A stretch of 27,180 bases of DNA from a virus (taxonomy: Duplodnaviria; Heunggongvirae; Uroviricota; Caudoviricetes), in IMG/VR virus record IMGVR_UViG_2740892115_000003; one strand, 5' to 3'. Shown here one piece after another: positions 1,832 through 25,147 of this stretch. Position 1 is the first letter of the stretch. The number at the start of each line of letters is the position of its first letter. The notes under the pieces are model-generated. The model had not been told where the DNA came from, did not search any database, and was given only the letters and a program-made list of their open reading frames with translations. Both the position numbers and the translations under genes were made by a program.

Positions 1832-2038
1832 ATGACCAGCAATATCACCAGCGCCATTTTGGACCTTGTATTCCTAGAAGTGGGTGTAATAGCGATTTAT
1901 CTGCTTAGCAAGCTAACAGGACAAAAAGAACGCTTTATTGTTCTCAACGTTCATTACCTCGCCGCTTATGCCAGAGGTCTTTTTCCGATCACCATTGGTG
2001 CGGTGCTCATGGCGTTTGTTATTTGGCTCATCGGGTAG
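1832..2038 (+). CDS. Small hydrophobic protein (two predicted TM helices), function unknown
   Basis: 68-aa ORF right after cox, ATG at 1832, no clear SD; hydrophobic composition; position corresponds to small early ORFs of P2-like phages. Confidence 0.4.
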   Translation: MTSNITSAILDLVFLEVGVIAIYLLSKLTGQKERFIVLNVHYLAAYARGLFPITIGAVLMAFVIWLIG

Positions 2039-5005: not shown

Positions 5006-5125
5006 GTAACCACTATGCACACACAAAAAAACCGCTTGCCATGCCGCAATCAGTCAGGTTACATTTTCGCTGCACCTCATAAAACGGGTGCCGGGTTTCG
5101 CAGCCTGCTGACAACCAAAGCGCAC

Positions 5126-5147
5126 AACCGCGCCAGCGGTTTTTTTG
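5126..5147 (+). terminator. Rho-independent terminator-like hairpin after the 4454-5005 gene
   Basis: Stem AACCGC (5126-5131), loop GCCA, stem GCGGTT (5136-5141), then a run of seven T (5140-5146). Confidence 0.5.
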
Positions 5148-5158
5148 TGCGTACTGTA

Positions 5159-5187
5159 TTGCCACGTTTTTTTCGCACACGAATTAT
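5159..5187 (+). promoter_or_regulatory. Candidate sigma70-type promoter immediately upstream of the structured element
   Basis: TTGCCA (5159-5164), 17-nt spacer, AATTAT (5182-5187); moderate match only. Confidence 0.3.
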
Positions 5188-5263
5188 GGCGGGGCGTACG
5201 GGGCCGACTTCGGTCGGGCCGGGTTCTTTGGTTGCCGGTACTGCGAACCCCGTACGTCTCGCC
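5188..5263 (+). ncRNA. Candidate structured RNA element (small RNA or structured 5' leader), strand-specific fold
   Basis: 16-bp closing helix 5188-5203 with 5248-5263 including two G-U pairs (only possible on the + strand RNA); inner hairpin CCGAC-TTCG-GTCGG (5204-5217); second inner stem GCCGG (5218-5222) with CCGGT (5235-5239). Confidence 0.3.
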
Positions 5264-5325
5264 ACCCACAGTTTCGCAGCTCTGGATGGTGAGTTTTCAA
5301 AACTTACAACCAAAGAGGCCACACC

Positions 5326-8826: not shown

Positions 8827-9786
8827 ATGAAAATTTGTATCGATGACGGCTCCACCAACATCAAGCTGGCATGGACTGAGAACGGCGAACGCCGCAACGC
8901 CATCAGCCCGAACAGCTTCAAGTCGGAATGGTCTGCGCCGTTCGGTGGCACGCAGCCCGCGAACTACATGCTTGATGGCGTGCGCTATGGTTTTGATCCG
9001 GTCAGCGATCGCTTTGTCCAGACGACTGACACGCAATACCAGTACAGCGATGTGAATGTCATTGCCATTCATCACGCGTTGGTCAAATCAGGCATCACGC
9101 CACAGGAGGTGGATGTGGTTGTCACCCTGCCACTGAGCGAGTATTTCGACACAAACGCACAGCCGGACATAGCCAACATCAACCGCAAAAAAGCGAACGT
9201 TATGCGCCCGGTGGAGTACCAGAACGGCGAAGCATTCACTATCCGTAACGTACGGGTTATGCCTGAATCCATTCCGGCTGGCTTTAAGGCACTGGCTGAC
9301 ATGAGTCCGTTTGAATCCCTGCTGATTGTGGATTTAGGCGGAACCACGCTGGATGTGGCAAAGGTTCAGGGACAACTGGCAGGTATCAGCCAGGTGTTTT
9401 GCGATCCACACGTAGGCGTTTCCCTGATGGCCGATGCCGTACTGTCGGTGATGGCCACTAACGGTATGCGTACCAGTCACCACATCGCCAATACCATTAT
9501 CGAACATCGCCATGATGAAGCCTGGCTGCGCCAGCACATCCACAATGACGCGCATTACGCCAGCCTGATGGCGGTTATTCGTGAAAAGGAAGAAACACTG
9601 AAACAACGCGTGATCCGCGCGCTGGCGGGTTTTTCGGGTTACGGGCGGGTGATGGTTGTCGGTGGAGGGGCGGAGATTGTGGCACCCGCTATCCGCGAAG
9701 CCTGCGGAGTTAATGCGACTTTCATCGCGGACGGGGTGCCACAGTTTGCTCTGGTTAATGGGCTGTACGCAATGGACAAGGAGTAA
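8827..9786 (+). CDS. parM: Actin-like segregation ATPase, ParM/StbA family
   Basis: 319 aa; N-terminal MKICIDDGSTNIKL and LIVDLGGTTLDV phosphate-binding motifs, ESIPAG, MVVGGGAE, and C-terminal LVNGLYA follow plasmid R1 ParM along the whole length (from memory); AAGGAAAAG RBS. Confidence 0.85.
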   Translation: MKICIDDGSTNIKLAWTENGERRNAISPNSFKSEWSAPFGGTQPANYMLDGVRYGFDPVSDRFVQTTDTQYQYSDVNVIAIHHALVKSGITPQEVDVVVTLPLSEYFDTNAQPDIANINRKKANVMRPVEYQNGEAFTIRNVRVMPESIPAGFKALADMSPFESLLIVDLGGTTLDVAKVQGQLAGISQVFCDPHVGVSLMADAVLSVMATNGMRTSHHIANTIIEHRHDEAWLRQHIHNDAHYASLMAVIREKEETLKQRVIRALAGFSGYGRVMVVGGGAEIVAPAIREACGVNATFIADGVPQFALVNGLYAMDKE

Positions 9787-9790
9787 ACCA

Positions 9791-10102
9791 ATGACGACAC
9801 CAACCAGACGGATAAGTTTCTATCTGAAGCCTGCGGCCGTCAAGAACGAAAGCGAAGCATGCGCCTGGCTGGACAGCCTTACACCAGAAGCCCGCAAAAG
9901 CGGCCAACGCGTGGCTTTTCTGGCCGGGCTGGCACTACTGAAAATGAATCCGGCAGAGGCTTACCGACTGGCTGCATGGGCTGATGATGAGGCATTATCA
10001 GTGACACAAACCAGGACAGAACGCCCCGCGTCACAGCCAGTATCAGCCGCACAGATAACCAGTCAGATGGCCGGAAATATCCGGGCGTTATTTCCCGAAT
10101 AA
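9791..10102 (+). CDS. parR: ParR-like DNA-binding adaptor (ribbon-helix-helix N-terminus)
   Basis: ATG at 9791 with AAGGAG SD, 4 nt after the parM stop; N-terminal RRISFYLKPA...LDSLTPEARKSGQRVAFLAGLALL parallels R1 ParR. The ORF-track start at 9656 lies inside parM and is rejected. Confidence 0.65.
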   Translation: MTTPTRRISFYLKPAAVKNESEACAWLDSLTPEARKSGQRVAFLAGLALLKMNPAEAYRLAAWADDEALSVTQTRTERPASQPVSAAQITSQMAGNIRALFPE

Positions 10103-10667: not shown

Positions 10668-11075
10668 TTAAATATAATCTTCTTCGTAGTCGCTGATTAA
10701 TTCATTGCCATAATCAGACAGCAATTTCAAAGCAAAGGTAACTTCCTCAAGGGTAGCTATCCCCATTGCTGAAAACACCGTTAATTTAACCAGCAGCAGG
10801 GAGTTTGAAAGTTCGGAAGAGTTCATCATTAAAAATATTGATGCAGCCTGAAAAGCTGTGCGTTTATTCCCATCATGAAAGGCATGAGCCTTGGCTATAC
10901 CAATCAAATACATAGCAGCCAGAGCATGAATATCATCAACCCCTTCATAGTAGTGTAGTGTCCTGACGCGATTTAAAGCACCTTCAAGTAGCCCGTCATT
11001 GGCATTTCCGCTCTGGGGTAAAGTTTCAGCATGGATACGTTCTACTTGTTCTTTTGACAAAAACACTATGTCCAT
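10668..11075 (-). CDS. doc: Doc-family toxin (Fic fold)
   Basis: 135 aa; motif HAFHDGNKRTA fits the Fic/Doc signature Hx(F)x(D/N)(G/A)NKR; start ATG overlaps the upstream antitoxin stop (ATGA). Confidence 0.85.
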   Translation of the reverse strand: MDIVFLSKEQVERIHAETLPQSGNANDGLLEGALNRVRTLHYYEGVDDIHALAAMYLIGIAKAHAFHDGNKRTAFQAASIFLMMNSSELSNSLLLVKLTVFSAMGIATLEEVTFALKLLSDYGNELISDYEEDYI

Positions 11076-11431
11076 CAGTTATCCTCAAGCTTTTTAATGA
11101 TATCCGCATGTTTTTCTCTTGTACGCTTCATTGCATCTTCAAAAGACAATCCTTTTTTTCTCTGTGCGACAAGAGCTGGATGACGTTTTTCCAGATCTCT
11201 CACTGCATTTATTAAGAGTGGTTGCTTCATTTTGTTTATTTGATCCCGCAGTTTTTTGGTTTTGCCAAGGACAGCCCGTATTTCAGGACTAAGATCAGAA
11301 CCAGCAAGAACAACATCCTTCCCTCCCTGCGCAGTGATAACGACACTGCCACCGGAAGAAAGGTAATCCAGAATTTCACTCAGGTTCTCACGAAATTCAT
11401 CATCAGTTACAGTTTTCATATTCATTTCCAT
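11075..11431 (-). CDS. phd: Phd/YefM-type antitoxin
   Basis: Directly upstream of and overlapping doc; N-terminal KTVTDDEFRENLSEILDYLSSGGSVVIT is Phd/YefM-like. Three in-frame ATGs (11431, 11425, 11419); exact start uncertain. Confidence 0.7.
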   Translation of the reverse strand: MEMNMKTVTDDEFRENLSEILDYLSSGGSVVITAQGGKDVVLAGSDLSPEIRAVLGKTKKLRDQINKMKQPLLINAVRDLEKRHPALVAQRKKGLSFEDAMKRTREKHADIIKKLEDN

Positions 11432-13002: not shown

Positions 13003-14753
13003 CAGAACTCCATAACCGTGAAACGCTCGTTTTCTCCTTCGCCGCCAATCGGTTCGTTAATGACAGCAAGCATGGTTGCCCACGCAAGGTCGCCGTGGCT
13101 GATCCCCCTCGCGCGGTCCGTTTCGTAAGTGATAAAGCCGCCCGGTGTTTTCACCTTACGCACGGCGTTAAAGGCCGCGACCAGCTCGCGTTCGGCGCGA
13201 TCGTATTCCCACCGCCCGGCACGCATTATTTGCAGCATTTTCAGTACCAGCGACCGTTTTGATGACAGCGTGAAGGTGTACGGAATAGCAGCAGGGAAAA
13301 ACCGCTTCACTATCTGATAAACAGCCTCCCCGTTCCCGCCCGTCACATCAATGCCGATGTGTTCCACGTTGTAGCGACACGTGAACTCTTCAATGACTCT
13401 GGCCTGTTCTTCAAACTCCAGCCCCTGAACGCGTCGCGTCTCCACCGTTCGAAAACGGCCACCAGGAACAGCCGGAGGAACCACCACGGACACAGCGCCG
13501 CTGTCGCCGTTGCCACTGCTGCCGTTTGCGTCATACCCAATCCATACCGGACGATTCCCCATCGGGCGGGGAGCAAAAGGTTTCCAGTCTTTCCAGTCGT
13601 CGTATCCGTCAACACCGCAGCCAATCAGGATATTCAGGTTAAATGCCGATTCCCCTTCGCGGACAAACTCACACATATAGAGATTGAGGAACTCGTCTTC
13701 GGTGTTTTCATCACGAATTTCGTCGATATCGGTGTGTTTCCAGCCGTGATTAACCACATCTTCCAGCGTGACAATTTGCCGCCACGTCCGGTCAGGGCAG
13801 ATAAGCCCGTTATGCAGCGTTTTCCAGTCAACAGAAAAACGCTGGCGTTTATGCGTGGCCTTTTTCTCGTTCCAGCGGTCGCCGTTCCAGTAGGCGTATG
13901 CCTCGTGCGTTTCGGTGGATGGCGTGGAGAAGTAGGTGCGCCGCAGTCCGCTGAGGGTTGCCATAGCGCCAGCCACCTTGCGCAGTTCAGCAAAGCGACT
14001 GACCCAGAAAAATTCATCAAAATAAAAATTGCCCGTATAGGACTGTGCCGACGCAGCAGAAGTGCCGAGAAAATGCAGCTCTGCGCCGTTGGAGAGGATG
14101 ATTTTATCGCCCCCTTTCAGCTCCACATCAACTTCAGCCGCAGCCTTCTGAATAATGCTTTTAAACTGGAACGCCTGACGACGCGACGCAGACAAAAAAA
14201 TCTGGTTACGCTGGTAAGGTTGCGCCACATCGTCACGCAGCGCCATCAGCAGTGCTTCCTGTGCAAAATACCAGGTCGCGCCAATCTGTCGGGATTTCAG
14301 GATCATCCTGTTACGTATCCCGGCTTCCCTGCAAAGGGTCAGGGAGTCAAACCAGCCCCGCTGATGCCACTCCAGCCTGCTGATGATTTTTTCCCGCAGT
14401 GCGGCAATCTGTTCCGGCGTGAAATGATTTTTGAGTTTTTTCGCCCGGCCTTTCTTTCCTGTGGCCGTCGCATCCGGCTGGCCATCATGCATTTTTTTAA
14501 GCTGCCGGGTCAGCAGGTCTATTTCCTTAAAGTCACCGCCTGTTTTATTCTGTTTTTCAGTAAGCTGGATGAGGCGCGCATCGATGGACTGCGTGACACG
14601 CTGCACGGGTGGCGTTTCATCCCACTGGTCGCGTTTTTTCCACGCATAAATCGTGTTCGGGTTTATTCCCATCAGACGTGATATTTCTGCGGGCGGATAA
14701 CCCTGCCAGTAAAGTTGCCGCGCACGCTGGCGCACAAAAGCGTCCTGAATCAT
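13002..14753 (-). CDS. P: Terminase large (ATPase) subunit, P2 P-like
   Basis: 583-aa minus-strand ORF with GGGGGAG RBS, divergent from the capsid scaffold gene; position and size fit P2 P. Confidence 0.85.
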   Translation of the reverse strand: MIQDAFVRQRARQLYWQGYPPAEISRLMGINPNTIYAWKKRDQWDETPPVQRVTQSIDARLIQLTEKQNKTGGDFKEIDLLTRQLKKMHDGQPDATATGKKGRAKKLKNHFTPEQIAALREKIISRLEWHQRGWFDSLTLCREAGIRNRMILKSRQIGATWYFAQEALLMALRDDVAQPYQRNQIFLSASRRQAFQFKSIIQKAAAEVDVELKGGDKIILSNGAELHFLGTSAASAQSYTGNFYFDEFFWVSRFAELRKVAGAMATLSGLRRTYFSTPSTETHEAYAYWNGDRWNEKKATHKRQRFSVDWKTLHNGLICPDRTWRQIVTLEDVVNHGWKHTDIDEIRDENTEDEFLNLYMCEFVREGESAFNLNILIGCGVDGYDDWKDWKPFAPRPMGNRPVWIGYDANGSSGNGDSGAVSVVVPPAVPGGRFRTVETRRVQGLEFEEQARVIEEFTCRYNVEHIGIDVTGGNGEAVYQIVKRFFPAAIPYTFTLSSKRSLVLKMLQIMRAGRWEYDRAERELVAAFNAVRKVKTPGGFITYETDRARGISHGDLAWATMLAVINEPIGGEGENERFTVMEF

Positions 14754-14907
14754 TGCTCCCCCTGAGTAATTACAGGAAGATTACCCGCGCGCGAAACCGT
14801 TCTCCTTAACCCCCTGCTCTGACTGTTTTCTTACAACAAAAGCCCTTTGTATCTGCCTGTTACGCTTTGCCATCATGACTGAAGAACCAGTCAGAGGGGC
14901 AAAAACT
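14754..14907. promoter_or_regulatory. Divergent late promoter region (leftward P-Q operon, rightward O-N-M-L operon)
   Basis: 154-bp intergenic region between divergent late operons, as in P2; only imperfect TGT-N(11-12)-AC(A/G) activator-site candidates seen (for example 14848-14864). Confidence 0.3.
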
Positions 14908-15744
14908 ATGGCTAATGAAAAAAAGACATCCCGCAAAAAGTTTCGCGTGGCTGTCTCCGGTGTAACGGCAGACGGGCGCGAAATCAACGGCGACATGCTG
15001 AAAGCTGCCGCCACCAGTTATAACCCGTCCGTTTATGGTGCACGTGTGAATATTGAGCACATCCTGTCACCACTCCCCGGTAGCGAGTTTTCCGCTATGG
15101 GCGATGTTGTGGGGTTGAGCACCGAAGACATAACCGATGGTCCGCTGGCAGGCCGCACGGCACTGTATGCCGAAATTGAGCCGACCACTCGCATGATGTC
15201 CCTGCTTAACGATGGTAAAAAAATTTACTCCAGTATTGAGCTGGAACCACAGTCAACCATCACGGGAGGCCCTTACCTGCGCGGGCTGGCAATGACCGAC
15301 ACCCCCGCCAGCCTGGGCACGGAACGTCTGGCCTTTGCGGCACAACAACGTATGCAACTGATGACATTCAACTGTCAGCAGGGAGAGGTGGCGATGTTCA
15401 CCGCCGCTATGGAGTCGGAACTCATCGAACTCACCGAACATCGTCAGGAAGAAGGCACCCAGTGGTTTAACCGCGTTATGGGGATTATTGGCCGTGGCCG
15501 CAAAGCGGATGACGCCAGTTTCTCCCGTATTCAGGAAGCGGTGGAAGGTGTCGCAACGTCACAGGCCGACATTATCGACCGTTTTAATGCACTGGAAACC
15601 CGCCATCAGCAGGACAGCCAGAAAATCACGTCACTGACCACAGAGCTGACAACACTGAAGGAAAAGCTGTGCACGCAGGACGGCGATCCGCAGAACCGGT
15701 TCACCGCAACGGGCGCAGCCTCCGACCAGCTGGCTGACTTCTGA
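14908..15744 (+). CDS. O: Capsid scaffolding protein, P2 O-like
   Basis: Start chosen at ATG 14908 (GAGGGG RBS) rather than ORF-track 14875; N-terminus MANEKKTSRKKFRVAVSGVTADGREI parallels P2 O (MAKKVSKFFRIGVEGDTCDGRVI). Confidence 0.85.
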   Translation: MANEKKTSRKKFRVAVSGVTADGREINGDMLKAAATSYNPSVYGARVNIEHILSPLPGSEFSAMGDVVGLSTEDITDGPLAGRTALYAEIEPTTRMMSLLNDGKKIYSSIELEPQSTITGGPYLRGLAMTDTPASLGTERLAFAAQQRMQLMTFNCQQGEVAMFTAAMESELIELTEHRQEEGTQWFNRVMGIIGRGRKADDASFSRIQEAVEGVATSQADIIDRFNALETRHQQDSQKITSLTTELTTLKEKLCTQDGDPQNRFTATGAASDQLADF

Positions 15745-15767
15745 TAAGACAAAGGAGCAAATTTTTT

Positions 15768-16820
15768 ATGAATCTGGTGATGTCAGATAATGCCCGTAAC
15801 AAGCTGGGCCGCTACATGACGCGACAGGCATCGATTAACAATATCCCGGTTTCTGGACTGGTATCGCGATTTACCGTGGAACCCTCGGTGCAGCAGCGTT
15901 TTGAAAACGCCTCAAAGGAAAGTACCGAATTTACGAAAAGAATTAACGTGATCGGCGTGACCGACCAGAAAGGCGAAAAAATCCTCCTGGACACCACCGG
16001 GCCAATTGCGCGCACGAATAGCAGTTATGACGGCATCAAACGCCGTAACCCGAATAACGTGATCGATATGAAGTCTCGTCAGTACCAGTGCGAACAGGTG
16101 AACTACGATACCTTTATTTCGTACCCACAGCTTGATACCTGGGCGGCCCACAGCGATTTTCAGTCCCGTATCAGTACACAGATCACCCGGCAGGTAGCGC
16201 TTGATCGCATCATGATTGGCTTTAACGGCACATCCCACGCCTACGAGTCTGATTTTCACACCAACAAGCTGCTTCAGGACGTTAACGTGGGCTGGCTGGA
16301 GCACATCAGAACCGATGCCAGCGAGCGCGTAATGAATGACGTGACGCTGACCTCCCGCAACATGGACAACACTGTGGCGCACGCGGGTAAATACGCGAAC
16401 CCTGATGCACTGGTACAGGATGCGCGCTCATCCCTGCTGGATGAATGGCACAAGGAAGCAGACGACCTCGTGGTGATTATGGGACGCAACCTGTTTAACT
16501 CGCTGCGTCTGCCCGTACTGAACAGCATCAGCGGCCAGAATCCCAATGCGGAATTACTTGCCGGGCAGCTCATCCTGTCATCGCGCACCATTGGCGGGCT
16601 GGGCGTGTTCCTTGCGCCGTTCTTCCCGGATGCAACGATGCTGATCACCTCGTTCAACAACCTGTCGATTTACTGGCAGAAAGGTTCAATGCGTCGCCTG
16701 ATGAAAGACGAGCCGGAATACAACCGCATCGCCACCTACCAGTCCATCAATGACGCTTATGTCGTTGAAGACTATGGCAAGTGCGCGATGATCACTGGCC
16801 TGAAGTTCGCCGACAGCTAA
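15768..16820 (+). CDS. N: Major capsid protein, P2 N-like
   Basis: 350 aa; AAAGGAG RBS; FTVEPSVQQ, GEKILLDTTG, MIGFNG, VGWL, NLSIYWQ, YVVEDY parallel P2 N. Confidence 0.9.
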   Translation: MNLVMSDNARNKLGRYMTRQASINNIPVSGLVSRFTVEPSVQQRFENASKESTEFTKRINVIGVTDQKGEKILLDTTGPIARTNSSYDGIKRRNPNNVIDMKSRQYQCEQVNYDTFISYPQLDTWAAHSDFQSRISTQITRQVALDRIMIGFNGTSHAYESDFHTNKLLQDVNVGWLEHIRTDASERVMNDVTLTSRNMDNTVAHAGKYANPDALVQDARSSLLDEWHKEADDLVVIMGRNLFNSLRLPVLNSISGQNPNAELLAGQLILSSRTIGGLGVFLAPFFPDATMLITSFNNLSIYWQKGSMRRLMKDEPEYNRIATYQSINDAYVVEDYGKCAMITGLKFADS

Positions 16821-16865
16821 TCAACTCACGGCGGGCATCATGCCCGCCTGTAACGGAGAGAAAAA

Positions 16866-17666
16866 ATGATTACTCCTGCACAACAACACTGGCTGAACGT
16901 GATGGCACAGCGCGCAGGCCGGGCGAATGAAGGTGTGGACCACGCCGCGCGTACCGCGCATGAAGAGGTGCTGTATCGTCTGCGTCTGGCACAGGCCAGG
17001 CTAAAGGGCGTACAGGCCAGAAGCGCGAAAGCCGCCATCAAAAAAGAGTTGTTGCCGGATTTTTCCGGCTGGATTGAGGGAACGCTGGAAGCTGACGGCG
17101 GGCAGCAGGATGAAGTGATTGCCACGCTGATGGTGTGGGCGATTGACTGCGGCGATCTTCCGCTGGCGCTGCGTATTGGTGCATATGTGGTCCGTCACAA
17201 CCTCATCATGCCGGATAACTTTGGCCGTACTGCTGCCACGGTACTGACCGAAGAAATCTGCAACCCGGTACTGACGCAGGCCGGGACGGATGCCGACGCG
17301 GATTTATCCGCCTTTATCGAACCACTGGACACACTTTGGGAAATTGTCGCCAACCAGGACATGCCGGACGAAGTGCGCGCCAAATTATGCAAGGCGTGTG
17401 CCTTTGCCCGTCGTGGCCTGACCGATGCAGACAACATGGCCTCATCACTGAAGCTGCTGCGCGAAGCGATGCACCTGAACCCGAACGCAGGTGTGAAACG
17501 CGAGATTGCAACCCTTTCCCGCGCCCTGAAAAAAGCCGATTCCGCAGCCGCACCAGAAGACGCCAGCGCACAGCAGACGCAGGACGAAAGCAGCAAAAGT
17601 AAAAAGACAACGCAGAAGCCTGCAACACGAAAAATCACCGCGTCGCAGAAGGCGAAGCGCGGTTAA
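16866..17666 (+). CDS. M: Terminase small (endonuclease) subunit, P2 M-like
   Basis: 266 aa; KKELLP and MPDEVRAKL match P2 M as recalled; basic C-terminal tail. Confidence 0.85.
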   Translation: MITPAQQHWLNVMAQRAGRANEGVDHAARTAHEEVLYRLRLAQARLKGVQARSAKAAIKKELLPDFSGWIEGTLEADGGQQDEVIATLMVWAIDCGDLPLALRIGAYVVRHNLIMPDNFGRTAATVLTEEICNPVLTQAGTDADADLSAFIEPLDTLWEIVANQDMPDEVRAKLCKACAFARRGLTDADNMASSLKLLREAMHLNPNAGVKREIATLSRALKKADSAAAPEDASAQQTQDESSKSKKTTQKPATRKITASQKAKRG

Positions 17667-17769
17667 CGACTGACCCCGTCAGCGGGCGGCGTGCGCGGTG
17701 TTCCGGTTTGACTCCGTGACCGTTTACACCGCGCACCCACCGCCCGATTTTTTTTCAGGAGTGAACTCC

Positions 17770-18264
17770 ATGAGTATGGTTGCCAGAACTGAACCAGGAC
17801 CCGCAGAGGACGACATCACCGATACCGATGATGGCGACACTCGCATTTCAGCAGGTGCATTCTGGCCGGATATTGTGCTGCGCGAGCTGCGTCTGGCGGT
17901 ACGACTGCCGGGCCGCGTGACCACCTCCCGCCTGCTGCATACCGCCACTGGGGCCGTGGCTCACGTTACCCGCGAACTGGAAGCGTGGCAGCAGGAACAG
18001 CAGGCGGCTGGCCATCAGACGCTGGCCGATGTTCCGGCACCCGTAATTAACGGAGAAAGCGTCAATCTCTGGCACTGGCGCAATGCTGTTTATACCGCCA
18101 CACGTGCCCTGATTCTGGAGCGTTACCGCGATGCGGACACAACGGACAAGGGCGATCGCCGGGCGGACGCACTGGATATACAGACATCGGATTTGTGGCG
18201 CGATGTGAGCTGGGCCATCTCTGACATTCTGTGCCGCCCGCGAATCTTTGCGGAGTTGTGCTGA
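17770..18264 (+). CDS. L: Head completion/stabilisation protein, P2 L-like
   Basis: ATG at 17770 with CAGGAG RBS (ORF-track 17698 is upstream in frame); LADVPA, GES, DELWRD-like segments parallel P2 L. Confidence 0.8.
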   Translation: MSMVARTEPGPAEDDITDTDDGDTRISAGAFWPDIVLRELRLAVRLPGRVTTSRLLHTATGAVAHVTRELEAWQQEQQAAGHQTLADVPAPVINGESVNLWHWRNAVYTATRALILERYRDADTTDKGDRRADALDIQTSDLWRDVSWAISDILCRPRIFAELC

Positions 18265-18464
18265 TGAAAGTGAAGGCACTGGAAGACGACACCGTGGATT
18301 CGCTCTGTTTCCGGTACTACGGCACGACGCAGGGCGTCACCGAAAAGGTGCTGGATGCCAACCCCGGACTCTGTCAGCAGGTATTTCTGGACGCCGGGCA
18401 GGAAGTGGAGATGCCGGAGCCGGAGAAGAAGAAACGAGAAATGATTCAGTTGTGGGGGGAGTAG
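18264..18464 (+). CDS. X: Tail protein X (LysM-like)
   Basis: ATG at 18264 overlaps the L stop; MKVKALEDDTVDSLCFRYYGTTQGVTEKVLDANPGL parallels P2 X (MKTFALQGDTLDAICVRYYGRTEGVVETVLAANPGL). Confidence 0.8.
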   Translation: MKVKALEDDTVDSLCFRYYGTTQGVTEKVLDANPGLCQQVFLDAGQEVEMPEPEKKKREMIQLWGE

Positions 18465-18466
18465 CA

Positions 18467-18790
18467 GTGAGCACCATTCAAACAGGGATCACAGAGCAGG
18501 TTATTGCGTGGCTCTTTGACCACCTGCCAACGGTGTATGCAGTAGGCGCGGCTGTCAGCATTTCCGCGCTGATGAGTCTTTATGACGGACGAACACTGGT
18601 TCAGACCGTAACGGGATCGCTGGCGTGCGGCGTTCTTGCCATGGCCGTGGCCGGGTCGCTGCGCTTCTTCGGGATCCCTGAGGATGCAGTGACGTTTTTT
18701 GGTGCCTCAATCGGTTTTATGGGCGCAGAGAAAGCACGCGACAAGGTTATTGCAATATTTGATCGCAGGGTGAAGGAGAGGAACGAATGA
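18467..18790 (+). CDS. Holin (lysis protein, P2 Y position)
   Basis: GTG at 18467 with GGGGGAG RBS; about 108 aa with two or three hydrophobic helices and a charged C-terminus; directly precedes the endolysin. Confidence 0.6.
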   Translation: MSTIQTGITEQVIAWLFDHLPTVYAVGAAVSISALMSLYDGRTLVQTVTGSLACGVLAMAVAGSLRFFGIPEDAVTFFGASIGFMGAEKARDKVIAIFDRRVKERNE

Positions 18791-19179
18791 GCAACACATT
18801 TAAATTCAGCAGCCGAAGCGAAAAGAATTTGCAGGGTGTAAATCCTGATCTGGTGAAAGTGACCCGACGGGCGCTGGAAATCTCGGAAGTGGATTTTGGT
18901 ATCACCGAAGGATTGCGCAGTCGTTATCGTCAGAAGCAGCTCGTGACCACAGGCAAGAGCCAGACCATGAACAGTCGCCATCTCACAGGGCATGCCGTGG
19001 ATGTTGTGGCTTATGTCGGCAACCAGGTGTCATGGGAATGGCCGCTGTACGAAAAAATCGCAGCAGCATTCAGACAGGCCAGCCAGGAACTGAATATTCC
19101 GGTGGAATGGGGCGGCGACTGGAAGACCCTGAAAGACGGACCGCATTTTCAGTTACCACACGGAGCCTATCCGGCATGA
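18787..19179 (+). CDS. Endolysin, peptidase M15-type (L-alanyl-D-glutamate peptidase-like)
   Basis: 130 aa; SRHLTGHAVDVV metal-binding segment and overall pattern typical of VanY/M15 phage endolysins; start overlaps the holin stop. Confidence 0.75.
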   Translation: MSNTFKFSSRSEKNLQGVNPDLVKVTRRALEISEVDFGITEGLRSRYRQKQLVTTGKSQTMNSRHLTGHAVDVVAYVGNQVSWEWPLYEKIAAAFRQASQELNIPVEWGGDWKTLKDGPHFQLPHGAYPA

Positions 19180-19583
19180 AGCTCTGGCCCACGCTTGGCG
19201 TCGCTTTCCTTCTGATTGCCGCATGGGGAACATCCATGCGTCTGTCGTGGTCGCTGGGCCGGGAGAACGCCAGAAACGAAGCGCAGGCCAGCACCCTGAA
19301 AAGTACCGTCGACACACTGAATATCATCAGCGCCGGGGTACAGGATATGCAGCAGGTGCTGGCTCAGCTCCGCGCGGAAAATCAGCAACGCAATCAGGAC
19401 GGAGAGGTAAGACGTGAACAGCTACGCAACGATATTGCAAAAGATGAATGCGCCCACGCTTTGCCTGACGCTCGTTTTACTGACAGGTTGCGCAGGCACG
19501 CAGAACGCGCCAGGGCCAGCGCCGTCAGTCCGGCTTATACCGCAGACGCTGACCATGCCGGTAACGCCCCCCCCCTTCCCTGA
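19176..19583 (+). CDS. i-spanin (Rz/LysB-like)
   Basis: ATG at 19176 overlapping the endolysin stop; N-terminal TM helix WPTLGVAFLLIAAWG followed by coiled-coil-like sequence; the o-spanin gene is embedded in its 3' end. Confidence 0.7.
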   Translation: MKLWPTLGVAFLLIAAWGTSMRLSWSLGRENARNEAQASTLKSTVDTLNIISAGVQDMQQVLAQLRAENQQRNQDGEVRREQLRNDIAKDECAHALPDARFTDRLRRHAERARASAVSPAYTADADHAGNAPPLP

Positions 19584-19725
19584 CCCACCCACATGGGGAA
19601 ACCTCGGAATATGGGGCGACCGCCTTCTGGATGCACTGGAAACCTGTAACGCGGATAAACGGGCCATTGCTGAACTGGATAAGAGAATAGCCGAACTGAC
19701 ACACCAGACGGGAGTAACACAATGA
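19414..19725 (+). CDS. o-spanin (Rz1/LysC-like outer-membrane lipoprotein)
   Basis: GTG at 19414 with GGAGAGG RBS; signal peptide ending in lipobox LLTGC; Pro-rich; overlaps the i-spanin in another frame. Confidence 0.65.
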   Translation: MNSYATILQKMNAPTLCLTLVLLTGCAGTQNAPGPAPSVRLIPQTLTMPVTPPPFPDPPTWGNLGIWGDRLLDALETCNADKRAIAELDKRIAELTHQTGVTQ

Positions 19726-21602
19726 CCAGTAAGAACTTTGCACTGATTACAGCCATGACACAGGCTGAACTGACTCAAAAGGTGAATGAACATCTTGCGA
19801 AAGGGTGGCATCTTCAGGGGGAGACGCGGGTTGCCTACGAACCCGGCACCCCGTGGTATCTAATGCAGGCAATGGTGGCCGATGGCACTACAGACATCTC
19901 ACCTGATTCCCCCCAGCACGGCAGCGTGCCGGAGTGGTATTACGTGGTGGTACTTGCTGGTCAATCCAATGCCATGTCATATGGTGATGGAATGCCGCTG
20001 CCGGATTCTTACGATGCGCCCCACCCACGCATTAAGCAACTGGCCCGTCGCAACACAGTGACTCCCGGTGGTAAAGCATGCGCATTTAACGACATCATTC
20101 CGGCAGACCACTGCCTGCATGATGTTCAGGATATGAGCGCACTGAATCATCCGAAGGCAGACCTGAGCAAAGGGCAGTACGGCTGTGTCGGCCAGGGCTT
20201 ACATATTGCCAAAAAACTGCTTCCGTATATCCCGAATAACGCGGGGATCCTGCTGGTACCATGCTGTCGTGGTGGTTCGGCATTCACCCAGGGCGCGGAG
20301 GGGACATTCAGTGCGGACACGGGGGCCAGCCAGGATTCGGCGCGCTGGGGTGCGGGTAAGCCGTTATATCAGGACCTGATCGCACGCACCAAAGCGGCAT
20401 TACAGAAGAACCCGAAAAATGTGTTGCTGGCGGTGTGCTGGATGCAGGGCGAATTTGACATGAGCGCTGCCACCTACGCACAGCAACCGGACCTGTTCAC
20501 GGCCATGCTGAAGCAGTTCCGTACTGACCTTTCCGGATTTAACGCGCAGTGCCATGGCGGCAGTGCTGCAGTTGTACCGTGGATTTGTGGCGACACGACG
20601 TATTACTGGAAAAACACATACGGCACACAGTATGACTCCGTCTACGGCGCGTACAAAAACAGGGAGAGCGACAACGTTTTCTTTGTGCCGTTCATGACCG
20701 ACGGTAACGGCAACAACACGCCCACCAACTTACCGGCAGAAGACCCGGATATTGCTGATGCAGGTTATTACGGCGCGCAATCCCGTAGTAATGGTAATTG
20801 GGTATCGTCAAATCGTCCGACACATTTCAGTTCATGGGCGCGCAGGGGCATTATTTCGGATCGCCTGGCAACCGCTATTCTGAACGCAGTTGGTCGAACC
20901 AGCGCCTTCATCAGCGGTACCGCACCGGAGATTAAACCCTCGCCCGGCGGCGACACGCCATCGGGGCCGTCTGATGGTGACACATCCGTTCGTACAGTCT
21001 CCCTGCTGCCGACAGCCGGAGAGGCTGCTGCGCAGGGCTGGACCATCACCGGCGGCAGTGTTGCGCTGGAAGATGGTGTGTTTAAGGTTACCAAGCAGAG
21101 CAATAAAACCTGGTCCCTGATGCATCCGGTGGATGACGCAGTCTCCCTGCTGACACGGGGTGGCAGACTGAGCTGTAAGTTTCGACTGTCAGGCGCACTG
21201 ACCAACAACCAGTTCGGTCTGGGAATTTATCTGTATACCGATGTAGCGTTACCTGACGTCGTGGCGATGACCGGGACTGGTAACCCGTTCCTGATGTCGT
21301 TCTTCACCCAGACCACAGACGGCAAACTGAATCTGATGCATCACAAGAAAGCCGGAAACACAAAGTTGGGCGAGTTCGGGAATTACAGTAACGACTGGCA
21401 GACGCTGGAGCTGGTGTTCACCGCCGGCAGTGCCACGGTTACTCCGAAACTGAATGGAGTGGCTGGCCCGGCATTCCAGGTCATAAAAGACAGTCTGACA
21501 CTGGGGCTGAATGCGCTGACGTTAACTGATATCACTAAAAATGCCGCGTACGGCGTCGATATCGGTAGCCTGGTGCTGGAAATCAATAATCCCGCAGCAT
21601 AA
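19722..21602 (+). CDS. Prophage NanS-p-like sialate O-acetylesterase (SGNH/SASA domain plus C-terminal beta-rich domain)
   Basis: 626 aa; N-terminal domain MTSKNFALITAMTQAELTQKVNEHLAKGWHL; esterase motif VVVLAGQSNAMSYGDG (catalytic Ser in GQSN); architecture and length match the NanS-p esterases of E. coli Stx prophages. Confidence 0.75.
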   Translation: MTSKNFALITAMTQAELTQKVNEHLAKGWHLQGETRVAYEPGTPWYLMQAMVADGTTDISPDSPQHGSVPEWYYVVVLAGQSNAMSYGDGMPLPDSYDAPHPRIKQLARRNTVTPGGKACAFNDIIPADHCLHDVQDMSALNHPKADLSKGQYGCVGQGLHIAKKLLPYIPNNAGILLVPCCRGGSAFTQGAEGTFSADTGASQDSARWGAGKPLYQDLIARTKAALQKNPKNVLLAVCWMQGEFDMSAATYAQQPDLFTAMLKQFRTDLSGFNAQCHGGSAAVVPWICGDTTYYWKNTYGTQYDSVYGAYKNRESDNVFFVPFMTDGNGNNTPTNLPAEDPDIADAGYYGAQSRSNGNWVSSNRPTHFSSWARRGIISDRLATAILNAVGRTSAFISGTAPEIKPSPGGDTPSGPSDGDTSVRTVSLLPTAGEAAAQGWTITGGSVALEDGVFKVTKQSNKTWSLMHPVDDAVSLLTRGGRLSCKFRLSGALTNNQFGLGIYLYTDVALPDVVAMTGTGNPFLMSFFTQTTDGKLNLMHHKKAGNTKLGEFGNYSNDWQTLELVFTAGSATVTPKLNGVAGPAFQVIKDSLTLGLNALTLTDITKNAAYGVDIGSLVLEINNPAA

Positions 21603-21625
21603 GGAAGAGCAGGAGAGCAAAACAG

Positions 21626-22093
21626 ATGCTTAAGACAAACAGTCTGCGAGAGTCCATGCTTCATGGGTGTCGGTGGTGCCAGGCTAATCCCGAGAAATTC
21701 ACCATTTTCGTGGAGAGCGGCAACATTGAAACGACCGGAGAAGCGCCCTCGTTTGTTTACCGCTATCAGATGGTGATGTTTGTCATGGATTACGCCGGAG
21801 AGCTGGACGACCTCACGCTGCCGCTGCTGGCGTGGTTATCCGAAAATCAGCCACAGTTGTTGCTCAATCCGGAGCGTAATCAGGACATCAAATTTTCTGC
21901 CGTTATCAATGACGATGACAGCGCCGATCTCCTGTTTACGCTCCCCCTGCGGGAACGCGTTCGCATCACGCGCAACAGTCAGGGCACACCGCAGGCAGAA
22001 CACCTGCCGGAGCCAAAACCCCGTCTGCCTTCTTCCGAAGGCGACTGGTCGCATGTATTCCAGGATGTGACGTGGGGTGAAAGCGATGGATAA
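21626..22093 (+). CDS. R: Tail completion protein, P2 R-like
   Basis: 155 aa; MLKTNSLRESML..., LPLLAWLSENQP parallel P2 R (MLKPDSLRRAL..., VPVLAWLRENQP). Confidence 0.8.
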   Translation: MLKTNSLRESMLHGCRWCQANPEKFTIFVESGNIETTGEAPSFVYRYQMVMFVMDYAGELDDLTLPLLAWLSENQPQLLLNPERNQDIKFSAVINDDDSADLLFTLPLRERVRITRNSQGTPQAEHLPEPKPRLPSSEGDWSHVFQDVTWGESDG

Positions 22094-22721
22094 GGCATTC
22101 ACCAGCGTGGATGAAACCTTTGAGGCTATCCGCGACAGCCTGAATCAGCAGGCCATCAATAACATCGCCAGAAAGCTGGCACAGGATTTACGTCGCGCCC
22201 AGCAGGCACGTATCCGGTCACAAAAAGCGCCGGACGGGACCGAATGGACACCACGCAGACGCCGCGTAACCCGGATACAGGAGCGCATTCGCTTTATCTG
22301 GAATAACGAAGCACGCACGCTGAAAAACTGGCATCACGACACAGGGAAATACGGGCGAACCATTACCGGGTGGGATGAGGATAAAAACAATATCCGCACG
22401 TTTTACCGGGATGACATCGACCGTTTTCTGGAAATACGCACCCGGCGCATCAACCAGGACAGCACAAAGCGCGTCCCCATGTTCGTAAAACTGCGCACCG
22501 CCCGCTACCTGAAAGCCCGTGCAGATGCTTCCGGTGTGACGGTGGGTTACAGCGGCGTGGCCGCACGTATTGCCCGCGTTCATCAGTTCGGTGAGCGCGA
22601 TCAGGTTGCGCCGGGCATTTTCACCGATTACCCGGTACGTGAGCTGCTGGGTATCAGCCAGGCAGATGAGCGCCTGATTTATAACACGGTGCTGGGCCGG
22701 ATTGCGGAGGCTGTACGGTGA
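22086..22721 (+). CDS. S: Tail completion/virion morphogenesis protein, P2 S-like
   Basis: Start taken at ATG 22086 (GGGGTGA upstream; ORF-track 22077 is GTG); position between R and V. Confidence 0.75.
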   Translation: MDKAFTSVDETFEAIRDSLNQQAINNIARKLAQDLRRAQQARIRSQKAPDGTEWTPRRRRVTRIQERIRFIWNNEARTLKNWHHDTGKYGRTITGWDEDKNNIRTFYRDDIDRFLEIRTRRINQDSTKRVPMFVKLRTARYLKARADASGVTVGYSGVAARIARVHQFGERDQVAPGIFTDYPVRELLGISQADERLIYNTVLGRIAEAVR

Positions 22722-23299
22722 GCGCAGAACTCATGCGACTGCTGAGCAATATCATCCGCACCGGGATCATCTCTGAAGTTGATGAGAAGTCCTGGCGCGT
22801 GCGCGTTCGCAGCGGCGAACTGGAAACAGGCTGGCTGCGCTGGAACACCACGCGCGCGGGAGCCTTCAATGTGTGGCTGCCGCCATCACCAGGCGAACAG
22901 GTGGTAATTGCCTGCATTGGCGGCAACCCGGAAACCGCCATGATAATTGGCAGCCTGTGGAGTGATGCCAGTCCGGCCCCCGGCAAAAGCCTGAAAGAAA
23001 TCGTGATCAGCGCGCCGGACGGCGCGGTGTTCCGCTACGACGCGGACGCAGGCGCACTGAGCGCCAGCGGCATGAAAACGGCCACTTTACAGGCATCCGT
23101 CAGCGTGAAACTGGACACGCCCGTCGTGGAATGCACAAACCTTCTGAGAACGGCGACGCTTGACGTCACAAAAGGAGGAAAGATGAGCGGCAATATCACG
23201 CACAGCGGCGGCAACTTCACCTCAAACGACATCACGGTGCATACGCATAAACACGGTGGCGTGAAAGGCGGCAGCGATTCGACAGGAGGCCCGCAGTGA
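22718..23299 (+). CDS. V: Baseplate spike protein, P2 V-like
   Basis: GTG start with GGAGG RBS; 193 aa; Gly-rich C-terminus; sits where P2 V does. Confidence 0.8.
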   Translation: MSAELMRLLSNIIRTGIISEVDEKSWRVRVRSGELETGWLRWNTTRAGAFNVWLPPSPGEQVVIACIGGNPETAMIIGSLWSDASPAPGKSLKEIVISAPDGAVFRYDADAGALSASGMKTATLQASVSVKLDTPVVECTNLLRTATLDVTKGGKMSGNITHSGGNFTSNDITVHTHKHGGVKGGSDSTGGPQ

Positions 23300-23646
23300 C
23301 AACCCGCTACACAGGAATGAATCCGGACGGGACGGGAAACCTGAACGATATGGAGCACCTGAAACAGTCAGCCAGGGACATCCTGACCACCCCGCTGGCC
23401 AGCCGGGTTATGCGACGGGAATATGGCAGCCTTGTACCTGATTTGATTGACGAACCCATGAATAACACCACGCGTCTGCAATGCATGAGTGCTGCCGTGA
23501 TTGCGCTGACACGATGGGAACCCCGCATTGCCCTGGACGCCATCGACGTTGTCTGGAAAGCGGGAGGCCGCGCCGGGGTGACGCTGTCGGGCACTGTCAT
23601 GCAGACCATGCAGAATGTTGAGTTAACCATCACGCTGAGGGAGTAA
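23296..23646 (+). CDS. W: Baseplate wedge protein, P2 W-like (gp25/GPW family)
   Basis: GTG start with CAGGAGG RBS; 116 aa; sits where P2 W does. Confidence 0.8.
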   Translation: MTTRYTGMNPDGTGNLNDMEHLKQSARDILTTPLASRVMRREYGSLVPDLIDEPMNNTTRLQCMSAAVIALTRWEPRIALDAIDVVWKAGGRAGVTLSGTVMQTMQNVELTITLRE

Positions 23647-23649
23647 ATC

Positions 23650-24546
23650 ATGCCTGCTGTTGACCTTTCCCAGTTACCGGAACCCGCCATCATCGCGAAG
23701 CCTGATTTTGAGGCAATTCTGGCTGACACAAAGGCCATGATGATTGCGTCCTATCCTGCCGAACAGCGTGAAGCCGTCTCCGCCGCGCTGGAGCTGGAAT
23801 CAGAACCCCTGAACGTTATCGCCCAGACAACAGCGTTTCGTGAAATGCTGTTACGCCAGCGGGTCAATGAGGGTGCACGCGCCTGCATGTTAAGCCACAG
23901 CGCCGGGACAGACCTGGACAACCTCACGGGCAATATGAACACAAAGCGCCTGGTTATCACTCCGGCAACGGATACCACCGACGCGGTGATGGAAAGCGAC
24001 ACATCGCTGAGACTGCGGGCGCAACGGGCGTATGACGGTCTGAGTGTTGCTGGCCCGTCAGGCGCATACGAGTATTTTGCACGCAGCGCCAGCGGTCTGG
24101 TACGCGACGCGCGAGCCATCAGCCCGTCTCCGGCCAACGTGACGGTTTCCATCCTGTCCACTGAAGGCGACGGCACAGCAACGGAGGCGTTGCTTAATAC
24201 CGTTCGCGCCGTTCTGAATGCAGAGGATACCCGCCCGGTGGCCGACCGCCTGACCGTACAGAGCGCCAGAATCGTGACATGGCGGCTGAATGCAAAACTG
24301 TACTTTTACCCCGGCCCGGAATCCGAACCTATTCTGGCCGCGGCTGAATCGTCGTTCAGGAAGTGGCTGGCTGAGCAGGGGCTTATCGGTCAGGACGTGG
24401 CGTTGTCCGCCATTGCTGCCGCACTGCATGTGCACGGTGTGCAACGCGTGGAGATAATCGAACCCACACAGAATATGGCCATCAGCGACATACAGGCGGC
24501 GCGCTGTGAGTCATTCACCATCAGCGAAGGTGGACGCAATGAGTAA
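23650..24546 (+). CDS. J: Baseplate assembly protein, P2 J-like
   Basis: 298 aa; directly follows W, as in P2. Confidence 0.8.
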   Translation: MPAVDLSQLPEPAIIAKPDFEAILADTKAMMIASYPAEQREAVSAALELESEPLNVIAQTTAFREMLLRQRVNEGARACMLSHSAGTDLDNLTGNMNTKRLVITPATDTTDAVMESDTSLRLRAQRAYDGLSVAGPSGAYEYFARSASGLVRDARAISPSPANVTVSILSTEGDGTATEALLNTVRAVLNAEDTRPVADRLTVQSARIVTWRLNAKLYFYPGPESEPILAAAESSFRKWLAEQGLIGQDVALSAIAAALHVHGVQRVEIIEPTQNMAISDIQAARCESFTISEGGRNE

Positions 24547-25147
24547 TTCGTTGTTACCACCATCAGCCAGCAATTTCATGCGTTGTGCCGAAGCCGTCGG
24601 AACACGCATTACAGACATTCCGGTAGACCTCAACACGCTGTGGTCGCCGGACACCTGCCCGGTGCATCTGCTGCCTTATCTCGCCTGGGCGTTTTCCGTT
24701 GACCGCTGGGATCGCAACTGGCCGGAAGAGACAAAGCGACAGGTGATTCGTGATGCATGGCTGATACACCGACACAAAGGGACCATCAGCGCACTGCGAA
24801 GAGCCGTGGAGCCTCTCGGCTACCTGATTGAAGTAAAGGAGTGGTGGCAACTCAACGAGGAGCCGGGAACATTTCGCATTGTTGTCGGAGTACTTGATCA
24901 GGGCATCACCGATGAAATGTATCAGGAACTTGAGCGCCTTATTGCGGATGCAAAACCAGTAAGTCGCCATCTGACGGGGCTGGCGATCAGCCTGAGTGTG
25001 AACGGAAAGATTTTCGTTGGTACGGGATGCTATCACGGCGATGCCCTGACGGTTTATCCCTACACCCCGGAGTCCATTATTGTCGAAGGGGATTATTTCC
25101 CTGCCCCGGCCATTCATTTAATTGATAATCTGAGAGTAAACGCATGA
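24539..25147 (+). CDS. I: Tail protein, P2 I-like
   Basis: ATG at 24539 overlapping the J 3' end (ORF-track 24506 is upstream in frame); 202 aa. Confidence 0.8.
   Translation: MSNSLLPPSASNFMRCAEAVGTRITDIPVDLNTLWSPDTCPVHLLPYLAWAFSVDRWDRNWPEETKRQVIRDAWLIHRHKGTISALRRAVEPLGYLIEVKEWWQLNEEPGTFRIVVGVLDQGITDEMYQELERLIADAKPVSRHLTGLAISLSVNGKIFVGTGCYHGDALTVYPYTPESIIVEGDYFPAPAIHLIDNLRVNA

Follow-up and report, generated by a model that had tools for sequence, protein, structure and literature searches.

A lambda S-type holin, an M15 endopeptidase and overlapped LysB/LysC-like spanins in the probable lysis cassette of a P88-type Escherichia coli prophage

Between the tail genes X and R, the position at which phage P2 carries Y, K, lysA, lysB and lysC, an Escherichia coli prophage holds a compact set of genes resembling its P2 counterpart in part, which raises the question of how this prophage would lyse its host and which components of its lysis module were exchanged relative to P2. 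The locus occupies positions 18467 to 19725 of the window, i.e., the whole stretch of 27,180 nt of DNA that was analysed here. An earlier note on this DNA had described a holin, an M15-type endolysin and an embedded spanin pair, with no lysA-like gene, and had taken this as an indication of module exchange within an otherwise P2-type late operon. Based on the genes and their sequences, from which we also infer lytic activity and timing, the locus is very probably a canonical cassette for lysis in three steps, carried by a P88-type E. coli prophage and set in a P2-type late operon between X and R.

Over its whole length, the window matches the E. coli chromosome NZ_OZ039818.1 at 100% identity; in this chromosome, the prophage adjoins pdxB. 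Across the late region, nucleotide identity with phage P88 and other Xuanwuvirus members reaches 93-96%; with P88 itself it amounts to 92.9-95.4% over positions 14599-19669 and 21668-24982, the gene order being the same. The prophage can be classified as P88-type, within the genus Xuanwuvirus of the family Peduoviridae. P88 was reported to be inducible and to produce infectious phage (PMC5285337). The 1259-bp cassette was detected, at 95-99% identity in most cases, in 1049 of the 5426 complete E. coli genomes, and its RefSeq labels read "phage holin family protein", "M15 family metallopeptidase", "DUF2570" and "LysC". It is the already known and annotated set of lysis genes belonging to a P2-like prophage that is very common in E. 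coli. Its GC content (0.55-0.56) is close to that of the flanking regions (0.56-0.59).

From 18264 to 22093, the genes are tightly packed on the + strand in the order gpX, holin, endolysin, spanins, esterase and gpR. The gene for the gpX tail protein (18264..18464, with a RefSeq start also at 18264) matches PF05489 Phage_tail_X (2e-19), while that for the gpR tail completion protein (21626..22093) matches PF06891 (1e-38); both belong to a series of late products with recognizable P2 counterparts. These include Q (47% identity to P2), P (44%), O (33%), N (41%), M (38%) and L (38%), as well as X (47%), R (36%), S (26%), V (46%), W (44%), J (54%) and I (61%), with portal, terminase, capsid and baseplate proteins ranging from 33 to 61%. 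Profile searches placed the flanking late genes in the Phage_GPL, Phage_tail_X, P2_Phage_GpR and Phage_tail_S families. Within this framework, the holin, endolysin, i-spanin and o-spanin genes follow one another in the order and at the coordinates given by the earlier note, all four being co-directional on the + strand, and ATGA overlaps occur at the holin/endolysin, endolysin/i-spanin and o-spanin/esterase junctions. An Rfam scan of the whole window returned no match in the cassette, the only hits being the isrK and C4 RNAs, both in the early region. In the interval 14700-23000, promoter and terminator predictions were at or below the shuffled expectation, and this interval contained no convincing internal terminator or attenuator of the kind annotated in P2 lysC.

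The first gene (18467..18790, + strand) starts with GTG, preceded 5 nt upstream by the Shine-Dalgarno sequence GGGGGGAG, and encodes a 107-aa product. This product matches PF05106, the lambda S family (69.2 bits, cut-off 23.8), and phrog_126 (1e-34); its score against the NCBIfam lambda-holin equivalog TIGR01594 (51.2 bits) is slightly below the cut-off of 55.05, and pairwise identity with lambda S is 23% over 60 aa. A simple Kyte-Doolittle scan identified three hydrophobic segments (aa ~12-36, 45-62 and 73-87), a pattern paralleled by lambda S under the same settings, and the C-terminal tail, EKARDKVIAIFDRRVKERNE, is strongly charged. The product is predicted to be a class I holin, with a topology of three hydrophobic segments and a charged C-terminal tail as suggested by this hydropathy scan. 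It thus shares with lambda S its Pfam family, its length and its three-segment hydropathy, and differs from P2 Y, which belongs to PF04550 and phrog_175. This difference in holin family comes in addition to those listed in the earlier note.

In lambda, the S gene has a Met-Lys-Met dual start, a motif that is absent from the window holin, whose N-terminus reads V/M-S-T-I-Q; it is also missing from the holin homologues of phages SEN5, P88 and Shae. The sole in-frame start located upstream, GTG 18452, has no Shine-Dalgarno sequence and would add the residues M-G-G-V-A, with no positive charge. Both the N-terminus of the holin and the context of GTG 18452 rule out a lambda-like dual-start antiholin.

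The second gene (18787..19179, + strand) encodes a single-domain protein of 130 aa. That this endolysin is of the M15 type rather than a lysozyme-type enzyme, as had been proposed, was borne out by a domain search, which gave PF13539 Peptidase_M15_4 at 47 bits (4e-12; cut-off 25), and by a match to phrog_465 at 4e-76. Its best relative in the PDB is Serratia ChiX (5opz; 7e-48, 61% identity over 126 aa), and further matches were obtained with 8q2g (2e-45), the T5 endolysin 2mxz (6e-22) and 2vo9 (1.5e-7); two of the PDB matches, 23ri and 8q2g, are phage L-alanyl-D-glutamate endopeptidases. ChiX is a zinc L-Ala-D-Glu endopeptidase in which His68, Asp75 and His123 bind the metal and Asp120 is catalytic (PMC5778951). 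All four positions are conserved in the window protein, where H65, D72, H120 and D117 align with ChiX H68, D75, H123 and D120, respectively. Family and residues together predict a ChiX/T5-type L-Ala-D-Glu zinc endopeptidase of the M15C/LAS group. The T5 endolysin and the RB43/RB49-type L-alanyl-D-glutamate peptidases belong to the same single-domain M15C fold family, but they occur in other phage types and with other holin partners. No hydrophobic N-terminus was found in the hydropathy scan of the endolysin, which points to a soluble enzyme relying on the holes formed by the holin. P2 K, in contrast, is a lambda-R-type endolysin (phrog_90; 55% identity to lambda R), and lambda R itself is a transglycosylase rather than a peptidase.

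The earlier note further held that no lysA-like ORF separates the endolysin from the spanins, and this proved correct: the ATGA overlap between the endolysin and i-spanin genes leaves no room for a separate gene. BLASTP and six-frame TBLASTN searches of the window with P2 Y, K and LysA gave no matches (best E values 0.06-0.7; 0.5-0.7 for LysA), and the P2 families to which they belong, including phrog_162 for LysA, were not matched by any window protein. When every ORF of 50 aa or longer in the window was scanned for two or more hydrophobic segments, the holin frame was the only one retrieved in the late operon, the remaining multi-segment ORFs being either antisense or a 68-aa ORF of the early region. 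A homologue or analogue of LysA elsewhere in the window was rejected on the basis of the BLAST searches, the hydropathy scan and the lack of any gap between endolysin and i-spanin genes. The absence of LysA is, with the holin and the endolysin, the third difference from P2.

Downstream of the endolysin, the i-spanin gene (19176..19583, + strand) encodes a LysB-like product of 135 aa that matches phrog_214, "Rz-like spanin", at 9e-42. Its single hydrophobic segment (aa 3-24 in the hydropathy scan) is followed by charged sequence, and the protein is predicted to consist of an N-terminal transmembrane domain and a charged helical periplasmic domain with one cysteine, C92. The score against Pfam DUF2570 (20.9) falls under the gathering score of 26.6. 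The o-spanin gene, which starts in the +1 frame within the i-spanin gene (at 19414 or 19444) and ends at 19725 on the + strand, encodes a LysC-like lipoprotein matching PF23793, "Rz1-like lysis system protein LysC", at 51.2 bits (1e-13; cut-off 27), the same family that P2 LysC matches at 64.9 bits. The lipobox cysteine expected of an o-spanin is present in the motif L-T-G-C, as Cys26 if translation starts at GTG 19414 and as Cys16 if it starts at ATG 19444. Counted from this cysteine, the mature product has 78 aa; its N-terminal part is rich in proline, and it contains a second cysteine.

The start of the o-spanin is uncertain. GTG 19414 is favoured over ATG 19444 because it has a good Shine-Dalgarno sequence (GGAGAGG, 6 nt upstream) and yields a signal peptide with a lysine in its n-region. 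The RefSeq start, which maps to CTG 19465 just nine residues ahead of the lipobox cysteine, is probably wrong, and the P88 record carries no annotation for the o-spanin.

The spanin pair had been described as embedded and listed as a difference from P2. The out-of-frame start of the o-spanin within the i-spanin gene was confirmed, but its stop codon (19725) lies 142 nt beyond that of the i-spanin (19583). In the classification of Kongari et al., "overlapped" spanins are typified by P2 and "embedded" ones by lambda (PMC6139136), and since the o-spanin extends past the i-spanin stop, the pair belongs to the overlapped class. P2 lysB (7922-8347) and lysC (8202-8492) have the same overlapped layout, so that this feature is a likeness to P2 and a difference from lambda. 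Pairwise BLAST of the two spanins against P2 LysB and LysC was not significant; their kinship rests on profile matches, namely the Pfam LysC family and reciprocal PHROG cross-matches. The i-spanin weakly matches the P2 LysB family phrog_89 (4e-4) and P2 LysB in turn matches phrog_214 (2e-4), while the o-spanin matches phrog_3001 (8e-20) and the P2 LysC family phrog_456 (1e-15). With an o-spanin in the Pfam LysC family and an i-spanin distantly related to LysB, the pair is the P2-like component of the cassette, retained from the P2 lineage and not exchanged.

Taken together, these genes suggest a lysis pathway in three steps, encoded in the holin, endolysin, spanin order known from lambda S-R-Rz/Rz1. 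The lambda-S-type holin would build up in the inner membrane and trigger the formation of large holes, through which the soluble, signal-less zinc endopeptidase of 130 aa would cross and cut the L-Ala-D-Glu bond of the peptidoglycan stem peptides. Finally, the i-spanin, a LysB-like protein of the inner membrane, and the o-spanin, a LysC-like lipoprotein of the outer membrane, which together already span the periplasm, would fuse or disrupt the outer membrane. With neither LysA nor a lambda-like dual start, the timing of lysis would presumably depend on the holin alone.

Whether this pathway operates in the present host is a point on which the chromosome record has some bearing. Downstream of the window, the tail genes from sheath to U, a block that also includes the tube and tape-measure genes, lie on the opposite strand beside an invertase gene, and gpD, also outside the window, is a short protein of 266 aa next to pseudogene fragments. 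Given this inverted tail block and the short gpD, this particular prophage may not be fully functional, and the cassette could be viewed as a silent remnant whose genes are intact while no productive lytic cycle takes place in this host. We consider this very unlikely: the four lysis ORFs are intact, tightly coupled and nearly identical to genes of inducible phages, the catalytic residues of the endolysin are preserved, and the cassette would keep its identity whatever defect lies elsewhere in the prophage.

With the cassette read as a functional lysis module, its composition can be compared with that of related phages. Relative to P2, the holin and the endolysin are non-homologous replacements, a PF05106 protein taking the place of a PF04550 one and an M15 zinc peptidase that of a lambda-R-type enzyme. 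Module exchange in an otherwise P2-type late operon, the central claim of the earlier note, is supported by the P2-homologous flanks, the unrelated families of Y, K and LysA, and a comparison with a close relative. BLASTN analysis revealed that Citrobacter phage Shae_phiSM, another Xuanwuvirus member, shares 96% identity with the window as far as position 18753 and again from 19197, and that the intervening exchangeable endolysin segment (18754..19196, + strand), a 443-bp M15 region in the window, is replaced in Shae_phiSM by 654 bp encoding an endolysin with GH108 and PG_binding_3 domains. The comparison shows directly that the endolysin alone was swapped, the holin on one side and the spanins on the other being conserved.

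Other combinations point in the same direction. The holin of Salmonella phage SEN5 is 57% identical to that of the window and is paired with a Phage_lysozyme endolysin, while an endolysin 75% identical to the window protein occurs among unrelated membrane-protein genes in Sashavirus 536P12. M15 endolysins with 62-80% identity were also found in many genomes that have neither this holin nor P2 flanks. In P2-like prophages of Enterobacter, Dryocola and Citrobacter, however, the layout X, S-type holin (57%), M15 endolysin (71-74%) and R is found again, with about 540 bp for the spanins and no space for lysA, which indicates that the pairing is not a recent event particular to the window. The combination of this holin with an M15 endolysin is instead normal across the P88 lineage, as well as old and widespread in enterobacterial P2-like prophages. 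P88 and other Xuanwuvirus members share with the window the series X, holin, M15 endolysin, i-spanin/o-spanin and R; the P88 holin and i-spanin are 92.5% and 94.8% identical to those of the window, respectively, and among the 15 closest phage records the endolysin shows 95-100% identity. The P88 lysin was reported as phylogenetically distinct from lysins of other P2-like coliphages (PMC5285337), and P2-like phages of Burkholderia were described as having mosaic lysis modules in which LysB/LysC are retained (PMC3091744).

The window departs from P88 at the cassette's right end, where a NanS-p-like esterase gene lies between lysC and gpR. This gene (19722..21602, + strand) encodes 626 aa with Pfam matches to DUF1737, a SASA esterase domain and DUF6645, and is 86-87% identical at the nucleotide level to the "yjhS" genes of Stx phages. 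The insertion measures about 2 kb, window positions 19670-21667 standing in for 93 bp of P88, and no notable flanking direct repeats were detected in a repeat search around it. It alters the last ~18 residues of the o-spanin relative to P88, and the same arrangement was found in 373 genomes; P88 and most relatives are without the esterase. The ATG of the esterase gene overlaps the lysC stop, so that it is translationally abutted to the cassette without being part of the lysis machinery.

The close similarity of the endolysin to ChiX, together with this neighbouring gene, brings up a different function for the locus. Serratia ChiWXYZ, a Type 10 secretion system, is likewise composed of a holin-3/lambda-S holin, an endopeptidase (ChiX) and two spanin-like proteins, and its holin ChiW has also been noted to have a single start (PMC4259817); of these components, ChiX was compared here by sequence and ChiW, ChiY and ChiZ by description. 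By analogy, the cassette could act as a device releasing cytoplasmic proteins from a subpopulation of cells, rather than mainly virions, and the esterase, which abuts lysC and has no obvious signal peptide, would be one such protein. Several observations make this extremely improbable. ChiWXYZ was defined as not prophage-associated (PMC4259817), residing in a chromosomal chitin-utilisation locus devoid of phage structural genes and serving to secrete chitinase, while a Type 10 system is by definition a non-phage locus for cargo export; the window cassette is flanked by head and tail genes and lies at the usual P2 position within the complete head and tail late operon of a phage lineage that is inducible. 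The esterase is moreover missing from P88 and most relatives, and ordinary phage lysis would free it with no need for a special mechanism. Finally, the DUF1737 domain of its phi24B homologue binds capsids, which argues for a virion-associated role. A genome-collection scan with the endolysin returned 77 loci, and Serratia chiX was not among them.

With a phage lysis cassette as the preferred reading, a link to these systems may still be considered at the level of ancestry. ChiWXYZ-type Type 10 systems could have arisen from P88-type phage cassettes or be closely related to them as sisters and, where the signal-less sialate esterase is joined to the end of lysC (about one third of the E. coli carriers), the cassette could also provide its release route from a lysing subpopulation, a suggestion that we regard as unlikely. 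The 61% identity between the endolysin and ChiX nonetheless offers a modest lead on the origin of Type 10 secretion systems.

Beyond correct annotation, the significance of the cassette is slight, and two annotation problems deserve attention, namely the start of the o-spanin and its absence from the P88 record. For the family as a whole, these comparisons illustrate the mosaic nature of Peduoviridae lysis modules, in which the holin and the endolysin are swappable while the LysB/LysC spanins and the flanking genes stay in place. In this respect, the M15 and GH108 endolysins of two near-identical phages represent a clean natural case of an endolysin-only swap.

A NanS-p-like sialate O-acetylesterase gene lies between the o-spanin gene lysC and the tail gene gpR (plus strand, 19722-21602), its 626-residue product combining DUF1737, a SASA esterase domain and DUF6645. 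Comparison with Escherichia phage P88 delimits the insertion segment that carries it at 19670-21667, where P88 has only 93 bp. The insertion also affects the gene upstream, as the last ca. 18 codons of lysC are altered compared with P88, and the ATG start of the esterase gene overlaps the lysC stop. The order lysC-esterase-gpR was found in 373 of 5426 E. coli genomes, and the "yjhS" genes of Stx1a phages share 86-87% nucleotide identity with the esterase gene of the window. According to a 2026 preprint, the homologue in phage phi24B has a DUF1737 domain that decorates a T=9 capsid.

At its other end (19414-19470), lysC raises a question of annotation. RefSeq places its start at CTG 19465, leaving a signal of just 9 residues, and GTG 19414, with the SD sequence GGAGAGG, is a more plausible start. 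In the P88 RefSeq record, the o-spanin is without any annotation.

Downstream, the gpS homologue (22077-22721, plus strand) matches the Pfam family Phage_tail_S in two stretches and is 214 residues long, in contrast to 150 in P2. Its best PHROG, phrog_36427, spans R and S together, as if the two were fused in some phages.

Several features of the early region were also recorded. Within the early operon, the cox-like gene is directly followed by a 68-residue ORF that is annotated as hypothetical (1832-2038, plus strand) and has two strong hydrophobic segments. Rfam matches to the Hfq-binding RNA isrK (5072-5146; 65.9 bits) and the C4 antisense RNA (5182-5269; 87.1 bits), both on the plus strand, overlap the area of a truncated "ash family protein" annotated by RefSeq. 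RefSeq annotates genes for ParM-like and partition proteins in the early/accessory region (8827-10102 and 10668-11431), together with one for a ClpX-type zinc-finger protein and, on the minus strand, a Doc/Phd toxin-antitoxin pair, a cargo that is unusual in prophages of the P2 type.

Outside the window, in the same prophage (L003, 29600-37100), the genes for tail sheath, tube, E, tape measure and U are encoded on the strand opposite to that of the other late genes, and a gene for an invertase-type recombinase adjoins this tail block. The same interval holds an inserted PIN-domain gene and a gpD annotated as short (266 residues), alongside pseudogene fragments. The prophage copy in this host may be rearranged or defective.
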